The notes: generated by a model from the sequence alone, not told the origin. DNA of 64,000 nucleotides from Candidatus Gottesmanbacteria bacterium (GCA_963701185.1 OY969569.1:731548-795547); one strand, 5' to 3'. Positions 3,373-7,438 are shown, counted from the first letter of the stretch. A program made the numbers and translations.

Positions 3373-3768
3373 GACACTGGAGCGGTTAAGCTCAGTGTCA
3401 GTAGTTGATTCGTAAGGGATAACCCAATGGTTTACCCATACTGCAAAACAATTTGTTGGAATAAAGAACGAAGGATTTCCCTTTGTTCTCCACAACATCG
3501 ATCGATTAGTACGAGTAAGCTAAGCACCTTACGGTGTGTACACTTCTCGCCTATCAAACCCGTATTCTCCGGGTGATCTATAACGATTCTTCATCTTGGG
3601 TTGGGCTTGGTGCTTGAGATGCTTTCAGCACTTATCCCGTCCGGATCTAGCTACCCAACGTTGCCTGTTGTCAGACAATTGGCACACCAGGGATCCGTTC
3701 CTCCCGGTCCTCTCGTACTAGGGAGAACTCCCCTCAAGAATCTAACGCTTGCACAGGATAGAGACCGA

Positions 3769-4074
3769 CAATTGTGTTACCTGCATATCGCTATGCAGTT
3801 CAGACTATATCTTCCCAGCCGTTCGTGAACAGCTGTGGTCTGACGTGTAGTCGTTGAGGTTCCCCCGATATGATCGGGGTTACCTGCTGATTGACTGCAA
3901 TGAACGATTGTCACCTCGACTTTTGGTCGGGGTACGTTCATATACTCAGTGTTTCCAGCAAATAGTCAGATTTATTTTAAGATTTCAAAATATAACAGTT
4001 AATCTCCTTCGATGGGGTTCATATAGAAGTCGGAAATCGGACAGCATATAGCGCGTTCTAATGCGCTAAGTCTC
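3769..4074 (-). mobile_element. Group I intron, ORF-less and about 306 nt, in 23S domain V (equivalent to E. coli about 2593). The 5' exon ends in U and the intron ends in G.
   Basis: Removing it restores GTCGTGAGACAGT|TCGGTCTCTATC, which is collinear with E. coli GACAGTTCGGTCCC. It contains P/Q elements (TGCTGGAAAC...AATCAGCAGG), an R element (CAACGACTACACG) and an S element (GGAAGATATAGTCTGA). Confidence 0.6.
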
Positions 4075-4730
4075 ACTGTCTCACGACGTTCTGAACCCAG
4101 CTCGCGTACCCTTTTAACCGGCGAACAGCCGGACCCTTGGGACCTTCTCCAGCCCCAGGATAGGATGAGCCGACATCGAGGTGCCAAACCGCCTCGTCGA
4201 TATGGACTCTCGGAAGCGATCAGCCTGTTATCCCCAGAGTAGCTTTTATCCGTTAAGCCCGCTACCTCCCACGAGGGTATGCGAGGATCACTAACACCTA
4301 CTTTCGTATCTGCTCGACTTGTACGTCTCGCAGTCAAGCTGGCTTATCGCGTTTGCACGACAAGTCCTGGTTTCCATTCAGGATTAGCCAACCTTTGTAC
4401 GCCTCCGTTACACTTTTGGAGGCAACCTCCCCAGTTAAACTGCCCACCAGACAGTGTTCTTCTCCCGGATTTTTATGCGGGATAAGTAAGATTTCGTCAT
4501 TTCGAAGAGTGGTATTCCATGTTTCGCCCGAAGGCTCCCACCTATGCTCGACAGTTAAAATAACGTCCTCAGTGCCAAGTTACAGTAAAGCTTCACGGGG
4601 TCTTTTTGTCCATGTGTAAGTAGGCCGCATCTTCACAGCCATTTCAATTTCGCCGGGTAACAGTTCAAGACAGTCACTAAGTCGTTCAACCTTTCGTGCG
4701 GGTCGGAACTTGCCCGACAAGGAATTTCGC

Positions 4731-5202
4731 TTATTCGTGTTAACTGCATATCGCTATGCAGATCAGACTATATCTTCCCCGATTTATTCAGGGTTGCACG
4801 TATAGTCGTTGAGGATTTTAATTAATCTTCTTTTTTGAAGAAAGCGCGGAAAAAGTTGTCTTAGCTTGTACTGATAAAACAGTGTGTTAAGGCTCTTTCT
4901 ATATTATGCCTTCCTCAATAAAATGTTATCCAAGAGTTACTTTTTCTAGAAAAAGAATTATTCTTGGGCATAATAAAGAGAACCGCTAAATCAAAATTTG
5001 GTTAACATAACCACCCCCCTTCTGATTTAGATTAATTAGTCTTTCCTGCTGATTGACTCCACTGAGAGGATTTTTACCTTTCGGTACCTTCAGATACAGA
5101 GTGTTTCCAGCATTTAGTACAATTTTTCATACACTCATTTTTCCTTATGCACATGAGTGTTGAGAGGTTTGAATACCTCACTATGGCAGCGACCCACTTC
5201 GT
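4731..5202 (-). mobile_element. Group I intron, ORF-less and about 470 nt, in 23S domain IV between GGTAG and CGAAATTCC (equivalent to E. coli about 1931). The exact splice junctions are ambiguous by 1-3 nt.
   Basis: It interrupts an otherwise collinear H69-H71 sequence. It shares its P/Q/R/S core and an about 75-nt identical 3' end with the first intron (CCTCAACGACTA.ACGT...GGGAAGATATAGTCTGA.CTGCATAGCGATATGCAG). It has no ORF on the rRNA strand. Confidence 0.55.
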
Positions 5203-7438
5203 CTACCATAGAACAGTTATAGTTACTGCTGCCGTTCACCGGAGCTTAAAAACCAGCCTTCCATCTTGCGAGGTCAGTCAGCCATTTAACTTACCGGCAC
5301 TGGCAGGTGTCAGCCCCTATACGTTGCGTTTCGGCTTTGCAGAGACCTGTGTTTTAGTTAAACAGTCGCTTAATAATCTTTTGTTGAAACCCCGATTTAC
5401 ATCGGGGCAAGGCATCTCCCATAAGTTACGCCTAGTTTTTTTGCCGAGTTCCTTGAACTGCTGTCTCCCGCTCGCCTTGGTATACTCGACCAGCCCACCT
5501 GTGTCGGTTTGCGGTACGGATAAACATATGCTTCTCAACGGAAACTTTTCTCGAAAACAGAACTATCTCTGTTGCCCGGCCTTACGGCGCACGACTTCCC
5601 TACTTCTCAATTAAACGCAATAACGGATTTACCAATTATCACTATTTCGAAGCATTAGATCGGCCAACGAATCAACCGCGAGACCAATCCCCCTTTGTCC
5701 CTCCTTTGAGTCTTAATCAACATACACTTGTAACGGAATATCAACCGTTTATCCATCGAGCTACGCCCCAATATGGCCTCGCCTTAGGTCCGACTAACCC
5801 GAAGTCGACGAACGTTGCTTCGGAAACCTTGGGCATTCGGCATGAAAGATTCTCACTTTCAAACGCTACTCATACCGGCATTCTCACTTCTGTCCGCTCC
5901 AGCTGCCCTTACGGGCTGACCTTCACTGCAGAACAGAACGCTCCCCTACCACTCACTCCCGATAAATCGGAAATAAATTTCAATCTTCGGTAACATACTT
6001 GAGCCTCGATCATTTTCGGCGCCACGGCTTTCGTCCAGTGAGCTGTTACGCTTTCTTTAAAGGATGGCTGCTTCTGAGCCAACTTCCTGGGTGTCTTAAA
6101 ACATGACTTCCTTAACCACTTAGCATATATTTAGAGACCTTAGATGAGAGTCTGGGTTGTTTCCCTTTTGACACACGCGCTTAGCCGTGCATGTCTGACT
6201 GGCCAGGTACATACAAAAGTATTCGGAGTTTGATTGAATGCACGATTCCTTGCGAAACACGTATCATTCAGTGCTCTACCCCTTCATACGAATAACTGAC
6301 CGCTATACCTAAATATATTTCGGGGAGAACCAGCTATCTCCAGGTTCGATTGGCATATTACCCCTAACCACAAGTCATCTCACAGATTTGCAACTCTGAC
6401 GAGTTCGGGCCTCCTCTCGACTTTCGTCGAGATTCACCCTGCTCATGGTTAGCTCACCTGGTTTCGGGTCTACCGACTGCTGCACTATTTCGCCCTATTA
6501 GACTCGCTTTCCCTACGCCTCCCCAACTTGCGTTGGTTAAACTTGCAGTAGATCGATAACTCGCCGGTTCATTCTTCAATAGGCACGACGTCATCCCGAT
6601 AAATCGGGACTTCGTCTGTTTGTTAGCAGACAATTTCAGGTACTATTTCATTCCCCTTCCGGGGTGCTTTTCACCTTTCCCTCACGGTACTAGTTCACTA
6701 TCGGTGTATTCATGTATTTAGCCTTGGATCGTGGTCGACCCGGATTCCCACAGACCCTTCGTGCTCCATGGTACTTAGGAACCATTAGAGGAAATTGTCA
6801 GTTTCGAATACAGGCTTTCACTCTCTCTGGTCGCCTATTCCGAGGCGTTCTTCTATCAACAATTTCATCCCATATCACTGGCCCTGCAACCCCAACCCTT
6901 GCGGATTGGTTTAGGCTGTTCCGCTTTCGCTCGCCGCTACTGACGGAATCTCTATTGATTTATTTTCCTCACCTTACTTAGATGTTTCAGTTCAGATGGT
7001 ATCCCACGCAACACTATGATCATCTTTCGATAATTTTTATGTTGCGCTCCCCCTTGCGGGGTGGGTTGCCCCATTCGGAAACCGCCGGATCGGAGGATTA
7101 TGGCTCCTCCCCGACGAATATCGCTGCTATATGCGTCCTTCCTCGGCATGAATACCCTGGGCATCCATTGTCAACTTGTAGCGTTGCAGAGAACAAAGGA
7201 GGCATCCGCCAGCTGGCGGATACACGCCTTGTTCTTTCTCCAACAAAATTGATTTGCAAGTAAGAAATAACCCTTTATGATTACCCCTTACGATGCAACT
7301 ACTTGTTAATTTACTTTCTTTCCATAATAGGAATTGCACCTACGCTATGGAAAAAGTCGTTACGATTTTAATGAGCGACTCGCGCTCTTGACGCGAGAAT
7401 AATCTCGATTTTATCGGGACTAATCTCGAAACAAGAGC

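Follow-up and report, generated by a model that had tools for sequence, protein, structure and literature searches.

Results

Two group I introns in a 23S rRNA gene

We analyzed a 64,000-nucleotide (nt) stretch of DNA from a Candidatus Gottesmanbacteria bacterium (GCA_963701185.1, OY969569.1:731548-795547), hereafter the window, whose minus strand carries a single 23S ribosomal RNA (rRNA) gene containing two insertions, called here intron 1 and intron 2 in the order of the window's coordinates (Table 1). This layout had been proposed in an original prediction made from the sequence alone, and it was borne out by a full-length match to the Rfam large-subunit model RF02541 and by blastn alignment with the Escherichia coli 23S gene, in which exactly two insertions longer than 60 nt appear, at 2604/2605 and at approximately 1931-1937. 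To apply E. coli numbering, we took GTAACTATAAC as 1910-1920 and ACGTCGTGAGACAG as 2590-2603; these anchors agree with the well-known positions of A1912/A1913, A2602 and pseudouridines 2604/2605. With both introns removed, and intron 2 placed between U1931 and A1932, the gene is 2927 nt long. The FtsH protein encoded in the window is 93% identical to a Candidatus Gottesmanbacteria protein, and further protein matches are named Patescibacteria group. The contig from which the window is taken is 995 kb long. We consider it quite probable that the window's only 23S gene, in a Gottesmanbacteria-like member of the candidate phyla radiation (CPR), holds two group I ribozyme introns that have lost their homing endonuclease genes.

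Table 1. Features of the rRNA region and of a third intron-containing gene in the window (positions counted from its first letter)
Feature	Position	Strand	Basis
23S rRNA gene with both introns	3486-7191	minus	RF02541, 2143.7 bits, full model 1-2925
23S exon 1, last nt U1931 (window 5205)	5205-7191	minus	blastn against E. coli 23S, junction analysis
23S exon 2, A1932 to U2604	4075-4731	minus	blastn against E. coli 23S, junctions
23S exon 3, U2605 to 3' end	3486-3768	minus	RF02541, blastn against E. coli 23S
Intron 1, group I, L2604, 306 nt, no open reading frame, canonical omega-G at 3769	3769-4074	minus	RF00028, R1, blastn
Intron 1 P1 region: loop hairpin UAGCGCAUUAGAACGCGCUA and guide GCUGUC	4040-4068	minus	read from sequence
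Intron 1 R/P7, P3', P8, S/P7', P9 hairpin, tail GUAACACAAUUG	3769-3856	minus	RF00028, R1, sequence reading
Intron 2, group I, L1931, 473 nt, no open reading frame, predicted last nt A (omega-A, 4732)	4732-5204	minus	RF00028, R1, junctions
Intron 2 internal guide UCGCU-GCCAUAG	5181-5192	minus	read from sequence; also in omega-G relatives L038, L159
Intron 2 P6-loop insert, 221 nt, A+T-rich, strongly self-paired	4816-5036	minus	Rfam gap, alignment with relatives, fold
Intron 2 core: R/P7 5' strand CAACGACUA, P3 3' strand, P8, S/P7 3' strand GAAGAUAUAGUC	4766-4811	minus	RF00028, R1, reading
Intron 2 P9 hairpin CUGCAUAGCGAUAUGCAG and 12-nt tail UUAACACGAAUA	4732-4761	minus	sequence reading, P9.0 analysis
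5S rRNA gene, downstream of 23S	3255-3371	minus	RF00001, 75.7 bits
tRNA-Ala(UGC) gene, upstream of 23S	7439-7514	minus	Rfam scan / tRNA calling
tRNA(CAU) gene with intron	63711-63982	minus	flanks join to 73-nt RNA
Third group I intron, 199 nt, in tRNA(CAU) anticodon loop	63753-63951	minus	R1, RF00028, folding of joined exons

Both insertions are group I introns, as originally proposed, and the core strings cited for that proposal, P/Q (TGCTGGAAAC...AATCAGCAGG), R (CAACGACTA.ACG) and S (GGAAGATATAGTC), are present exactly in each. In searches with the Rfam group I model RF00028, which were run locus by locus with the curated cut-off of 50 bits, intron 1 matches the full model (1-253) with 81.5 bits and passes. 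Intron 2 reaches 40.4 bits (E = 2.4e-8 in a 2-kb search) and fails, because a 221-nt insert splits its P6 loop, where the alignment has a gap of 192 nt. Alongside RF00028 we used a covariance model, R1, built from 11 intron cores of other organisms (nine from site L1931 and two from L2604) and searched over the whole window with filters off. R1 matches intron 1 with 149.5 bits (E = 6e-36) and the two halves of intron 2 with 63.3 and 63.0 bits. The consensus of its alignment, with which both window introns align, recovers helices P3, P4, P5, P6, P8 and P9, with compensatory changes on both sides in 29 of 45 pairs. P7 is a pseudoknot outside the model; read by eye, it forms in both introns from R and S (strands as in Table 1), with a G-C guanosine-binding pair. 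A P1 helix between guide and 5' exon, with a U.G pair at the splice site, can likewise be read in both. Compared to shuffled sequence, both introns also have far better folds (z-scores of -5.1 and -4.2), and GAAGATATAGTC, with up to one mismatch, has two matches in the window against 0.19 expected by chance.

A different explanation would be that the insertions are expansion segments, or intervening sequences that RNase III cuts out without ligation. Such intervening sequences are known in bacterial 23S rRNA and in this radiation (PMC11270868), but they are hairpins at helix tips and lack a ribozyme core. Both insertions in the window match group I covariance models, and the sequence that each interrupts, at a known intron site, is universally conserved and either single-stranded or at a helix junction, so that we find this explanation barely credible.

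Excising intron 1 rebuilds GACAGT|TCGGTC, exactly as proposed, and its placement between U2604 and U2605 is unambiguous. The site is therefore L2604, 11 nt downstream of L2593, rather than the 2593-like site first suggested, and intron 1 thus belongs with the CPR group I introns at E. coli position 2604 and not with the I-CreI-type introns at L2593. Its guide GCUGUC pairs with exon GACAGU, leaving U2604.G at the splice site, and its 3' end (...AAUUG|UCGG) has the terminal guanosine (omega-G) of group I introns. P6 is minimal, and P7.1/P7.2 extensions are absent, since P3' directly follows R and P8 runs straight into S.

The two introns share a nearly identical stretch from GGGAAGATATAGTC to TAACAC, about 48 nt with two differences (46/48 shared). 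This is shorter than the approximately 75 nt claimed before, and the P8 region upstream differs. Nor do the introns end in the palindromic hairpin: this P9 hairpin is identical in both (18/18), and a further 12 nt follow it in each. The absence of a homing endonuclease gene held up, with no open reading frame (ORF) longer than 54 amino acids (aa) on either strand of either insertion. No LAGLIDADG ORF occurs anywhere in the 64-kb window, so neither intron has the P6-located gene of L1931 and L2604 homing introns.

Intron 2 is predicted to end in adenosine

Intron 2 is inserted between U1931 and A1932, the position that defines the L1931 lineage and agrees with the 1931-like site of the original prediction. 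An AG duplicated at its borders allows three registers. The features described below favour 4732-5204, GGU1931|AG...UA|A1932GCGAAA. The earlier claim of a second insertion is thus sound, but its borders (after GGTAG, about 4731-5202, about 470 nt) are better replaced by GGU|AG...UA|AGCGAAA and 473 nt. With a 5' site after U1931 and the mature sequence GGUAGCGAAA, the intron would end in ...GAAUA, that is, in A. The predicted 3' end (...GAAUA|AGCG) accordingly lacks omega-G, a feature that the earlier reading overlooked, and the ligated junction would read ...CUAUGGU-AGCGAAAUU....

The internal guide, UCGCU-GCCAUAG, is the unbroken complement of the ligated exons CUAUGGU-AGCGA. Its GCCAUAG portion pairs with the 5' exon CUAUGGU to give P1, with a U1931.G wobble, and UCGCU pairs with the 3' exon AGCGA to give a P10 of five contiguous pairs. 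Shifting the intron two nt downstream, to a site between G1933 and C1934, would give it a canonical terminal G (...AAUAAG|CGAAA) at the price of an unusual G as last exon nucleotide. This was the placement first chosen; the duplicated AG makes the DNA compatible with it, and the introns of L013, L003, L086 and L043 (three-digit handles denote related loci) also have a duplicated AG. However, the U.G wobble of P1 falls at U1931, as it does in the omega-G relatives that have a matching guide (L038, L159, L072 and L058). An AG start, which extends P1, is shared by many omega-G introns at L1931 and is thus a feature of the class. Moreover, the introns of L053/L064 (GGU|GGAAAU...CAAUUA|AGCG), L107 and L090 start without AG and cannot be shifted, yet they still end in ...A|AGCGAAA.

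The P9.0 pairing also bears on the choice of register. In this intron class, the two nt after P7 pair with the two nt before the terminal nucleotide; in intron 2, AU of J7/9 pairs with the AU preceding the last A. Among 16 omega-A tails, both P9.0 pairs form in 11 at the A register and in none two nt downstream. Six dinucleotide combinations occur: AU/AU (the window), AA/UU, AC/GU, AG/CU, GA/UC and UG/CA. The A register is further supported by the 12-nt tail that follows the P9 hairpin in both window introns. We consider the G1933/C1934 placement very improbable. Covariation between guide and exon in hosts with UAUGG or UAAGG gave a mixed picture (nine own-type, three other-type and many inexact), and we did not rely on it.

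Adenosine endings recur at L1931. We scanned metagenomes for an exact S element followed within 30-60 nt by AGCGAARTTCC, which returned at least 120 matches. Among the matches listed, the 67 distinct L1931 3' ends comprise 52 G, 14 A and 1 C, compared to G in 20 of 20 distinct ends at L1917/L1923 (Fisher p = 0.03 versus L1931). In one of the A cases (L129) and in the single C case (L075), the following sequence is not 23S-like. The L2604 introns found (n = 6) all end in G. Endings in A occur in several L1931 sublineages, both with and without endonuclease genes. That intron 2 represents a natural, recurring type of L1931 group I intron ending in adenosine is, in our judgment, as likely as not. 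In the literature searched we found no paper describing an omega-A class at L1931, and to our knowledge a missing omega-G has one precedent, in a single intron of Coxiella. This intron is described as self-splicing without a canonical omegaG in the Raghavan et al. 2007 title that PMC11270868 cites, so omega-G appears near-universal but not strictly required.

Arguments for and against a functional intron 2

Several points weigh against a pair of working introns whose endonuclease genes were lost. That the insertions splice is predicted from their anatomy. Intron 2 scores below the Rfam cut-off, which ORF-less homologues pass, as in L058, where the introns at the two sites score 64.2 and 59.7 bits. 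P9.0 pairing is missing in 5 of the 16 omega-A tails. Replacement of the terminal G by A in Tetrahymena mutants reportedly causes a strong loss of exon ligation, and the P7 G-C pair of intron 2 is the same as in its closest omega-G relatives, with no compensating change, so efficient splicing of intron 2 is not assured. Finally, that the P6 insert of intron 2 replaced a lost endonuclease gene is suggested by its position, and the insert holds no LAGLIDADG trace.

One interpretation of these points is that intron 2 is crippled: the change of its terminal G to A would block ligation, leaving the insertion in mature 23S rRNA, or only the first step would take place. The unchanged guanosine-binding pair alongside a terminal A would fit this, as would the low Rfam score together with the 221-nt insert. 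There is also a parallel in Simkania negevensis, where Everett et al. 1999, by the title that PMC11270868 cites, reported an unspliced L1931 intron. However, all core helices, P1 and P10 of intron 2 are intact, and A endings occur in at least five distinct L1931 sublineages, some with intact LAGLIDADG ORFs (L090, L013 and L107). In all 23S-derived tails among the matches listed, the terminal nucleotide is A or G, and the covariation of P9.0 with the tail implies that use of the 3' splice site is under selection. The self-splicing Coxiella intron of the Raghavan et al. title is a further argument against inactivity. We consider a crippled or retained intron 2 unlikely and continue to favour a functional intron that ends in A.

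The P6 insert of intron 2

Alignment with relatives places the insert at the P6 position where they carry a LAGLIDADG ORF. It is unique, has long internal inverted repeats and no coding potential, and resembles neither the inserts nor the endonuclease genes that relatives have at this position. No further copy was found in the window or in 161 fetched loci, and a repeated mobile element is therefore unlikely. A decayed endonuclease gene was sought with a LAGLIDADG profile built from 20 relatives' ORFs; in six frames the insert scored no better than 200 shuffles. Matches found by tblastn at the ends of the insert were rejected as endonuclease remnants, since they cover only the ribozyme core, through which the relatives' ORFs read. 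In L159, whose 23S sequence is 90% identical to that of the window, a related L1931 intron of 462 nt has a different P6 insert with a 66-aa sense ORF (MNVRVEEEPIDLGDPDSWPKSQ...) that by eye is not LAGLIDADG-like; a 91-aa antisense ORF in the same insert looks spurious.

Inheritance of the introns and probable loss of the endonuclease gene

Metagenome contigs whose 23S sequence is 85-93% identical to that of the window form a clade. In L058, L122, L140 and L072 this identity is 85-90%, and L058, L140 and L072 have introns at both sites. L058, L122 and L140 have complete L2604 introns whose P1 loop hairpin, guide, P2 and P3 are homologous to those of intron 1; L072 shows the beginning of such a homologous intron where its contig ends, and L071 has a longer, ORF-bearing L2604 intron. 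The L1931 introns of L058, L140 and L072 are homologous to intron 2. Because related contigs have introns at both sites, the pair should predate this genome, and because each intron shares its 5' domain with introns at the same site elsewhere, the pair would have been inherited rather than freshly duplicated.

Alternatively, the two introns could be recent sister copies within this genome, made by reverse splicing or ectopic homing, or could have been homogenized by gene conversion. The identical P9 hairpin and the 46 of 48 nt shared from S to UAACAC point in this direction. So does the core of intron 1, which is 77% identical to the L1931 intron of L137 and 71% identical to intron 2, compared to 68% for the L2604 introns of L058 and L140; this pattern counts against simple descent of the pair and means that exchange between the two site lineages may have occurred. 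Even so, intron 1 shares its 5' domain and P3 with the L058 and L140 L2604 introns, and the core of intron 2 is closer to clade L1931 introns (75-79%) than to intron 1. The 5' domains of introns 1 and 2 are unrelated and site-specific, with orthologues elsewhere, and P8 and P5 differ between the introns. The shared hairpin is found in distant organisms (L038, L008, L149 and L054): the genome collection has the S-to-P9 motif in 39 species, and it recurs with the exact P9 hairpin well outside the clade, so we read it as a class-wide motif. With introns already present at both sites in related contigs, recent sister copies seem to us quite improbable. From these comparisons we conclude that the introns probably form one subfamily inherited as a pair, with some exchange between sites possible, and are not a recent duplication. 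The idea of sibling introns from one lineage thus holds at the level of the subfamily but not beyond it.

The sizes of related introns are mostly bimodal, approximately 230-415 nt without an ORF and 610-800 nt with a sense ORF of 130-175 aa. These ORFs are located in the P6 loop, and all three that we tested, covering both sites, match PF00961 (LAGLIDADG_1) with 69-80 bits. A cycle of homing and later endonuclease-gene loss, which is the usual one, accounts for the ORF-less state of both window introns. The original prediction had left the mode of spread open between reverse splicing and an endonuclease acting in trans; the same-site relatives that encode LAGLIDADG_1 in P6 fit a homing-then-loss cycle instead. 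In L072, L115, L090, L013 and other L1931 introns, the LAGLIDADG ORF runs in frame through the ribozyme core and reads NQQERL at the Q/P6 element AAUCAGCAGGAAAGACU and SSTTIR at the R element UCCUCAACGACUAUACG; the shared bases therefore serve both RNA and protein.

Two observations concern other relatives. The closest 23S relative found, L047 (93% over 427 nt), has an L1931 intron with a very different P9 and 3' tail and a terminal G, which suggests intron turnover at L1931 within the clade. In the genome collection, L035, L038 and L018 come from bins titled Gammaproteobacteria or Actinomycetota, and their multi-intron 23S genes are 72-78% identical to E. coli 23S; probably the rRNA contigs are mis-binned or the bins mis-named.

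Neighbouring genes and a third intron

The rRNA genes lie on the minus strand in the order tRNA-Ala, 23S, 5S (3255-7514). An Rfam scan found no 16S gene in the 64-kb window, including 56 kb upstream of the rRNA genes. L058 (3855-8050) has the same tRNA-23S layout and no 16S gene in its 3.8 kb of upstream sequence; accordingly, the 16S gene appears to be unlinked in this clade. Complementary sequences flank the 23S gene on the minus strand, CCUUUGUUCUC upstream (7191-7215) and GAGAACAAAGG downstream (3470-3495), and look like the usual processing stem of precursor rRNA. When the flanking proteins were used to seek an independent assembly of the rRNA region, one search gave no match and the other a Logan contig, which ends before the rRNA genes.

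A third group I intron, also overlooked before, interrupts a tRNA(CAU) gene near the far end of the window. R1 without filters matches it at 63765-63920 (66 bits, E = 4.6e-15), and RF00028 matches 63765-63961 with 49.9 bits, which a scan at the cut-off misses. The joined exons fold into a cloverleaf by RNAfold, with anticodon loop CUCAUAA, in which the intron is located as CU|intron|CAUAA, and a 3' end of A-CCA. The RNA has an unusual T loop (CGCGCCU) and a C1xA72 mismatch; because of this mismatch, an initiator tRNA is suggested. ARAGORN calls neither this gene in the window nor its spliced form.

Discussion

From the anatomy of the introns we can propose how they would splice. The internal guide would pair with the end of the upstream exon (GACAGU with GCUGUC in intron 1, CUAUGGU with GCCAUAG in intron 2), placing the U.G wobble at the 5' site. 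Free guanosine, held at the P7 G-C pair (GACUA/UAGUC), would attack this site, after which the terminal nucleotide of the intron would take over the guanosine pocket. The freed exon would then attack the 3' splice site and the exons would join. In intron 2 the 3' site appears to be set by the two-pair P9.0 (AU of J7/9 with AU before the final A) and by the five-pair P10 (UCGCU with AGCGA), and the second step is probably slower. Both introns probably descend from introns whose homing was driven by LAGLIDADG endonucleases.

Omega-G counts as a defining element in group I chemistry, and omega-A introns make up approximately a fifth of the L1931 ends among the matches listed. If omega-A introns splice accurately, either the 3' site is set by P9.0 and P10 without omega-G recognition or the guanosine pocket accepts A. 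If so, a slow second step may even be deliberate, which would tie the making of ribosomes to intron chemistry in bacteria that grow slowly and have small genomes. Omega-A introns and close omega-G relatives that differ at one position are ready pairs for studying the second step and the choice of 3' site. At this locus specialists might be surprised only by the predicted terminal A of intron 2, seen as one case in a putative recurring L1931 class. For annotation the finding is routine, as 23S genes with more than one intron, and both of these sites, are on record for this radiation. Practical lessons include the assignment of the first site to L2604 rather than L2593, an intron missed at the Rfam cut-off, and an intron-containing tRNA(CAU) gene missed by ARAGORN.

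Brown et al. 2015 reportedly were the first to draw attention to group I introns in 23S genes of this radiation. Tsurumaki et al. 2024 (PMC11270868) assigned 45% of 968 23S insertions in the radiation to group I introns, with several insertions in many genes. Positions 1931 and 2604 were among the frequent sites, LAGLIDADG_1 was encoded at 1917, 1931, 1952, 2593, 2604 and 2657, and the introns were inferred to be spliced because they cluster at the peptidyl transferase centre. The window agrees with that survey in host radiation, in both positions and in having several insertions in one gene. It differs in that both of its introns lack the ORF that is the usual cargo there, and in that intron 2 has a structured 221-nt P6 insert and is predicted to end in A. 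The survey is silent on the terminal nucleotide, and "omegaG" appears in it only in a reference title.

At L1931, the introns of Thermotoga, Simkania, Synechococcus and organelles (Haugen et al. 2007, PMC1995217) likewise follow U1931. They carry single-motif LAGLIDADG ORFs that extend into the ribozyme core, as do the ORFs of the relatives described here. Likened by site and description, they are 654-700 nt with an ORF, compared to 473 nt without one in intron 2, and P2, which forms a hairpin in intron 2, is said to be absent from the Synechococcus L1931 introns. The helix region of domain V that holds intron 1 is also the location of the group I introns at L2593 (I-CreI type in Chlamydomonas chloroplasts; also Synechococcus and Thermosynechococcus). 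These are inserted after U2593, 11 nt upstream; they have LAGLIDADG cargo, and those of Synechococcus have P7.1/P7.2 extensions (PMC1995217), which intron 1 lacks.

Another parallel to the pair is found in Coxiella burnetii, in which two introns of group I, Cbu.L1917 along with Cbu.L1951, likewise occupy one bacterial 23S gene. In Cbu.L1917 the terminal nucleotide is reportedly an A. One intron of this pair lacks a terminal G and is described as self-splicing in the title cited in PMC11270868, as we predict for intron 2; the sites differ (1917/1951 compared to 1931/2604), and the host is a gammaproteobacterium rather than a member of the CPR.

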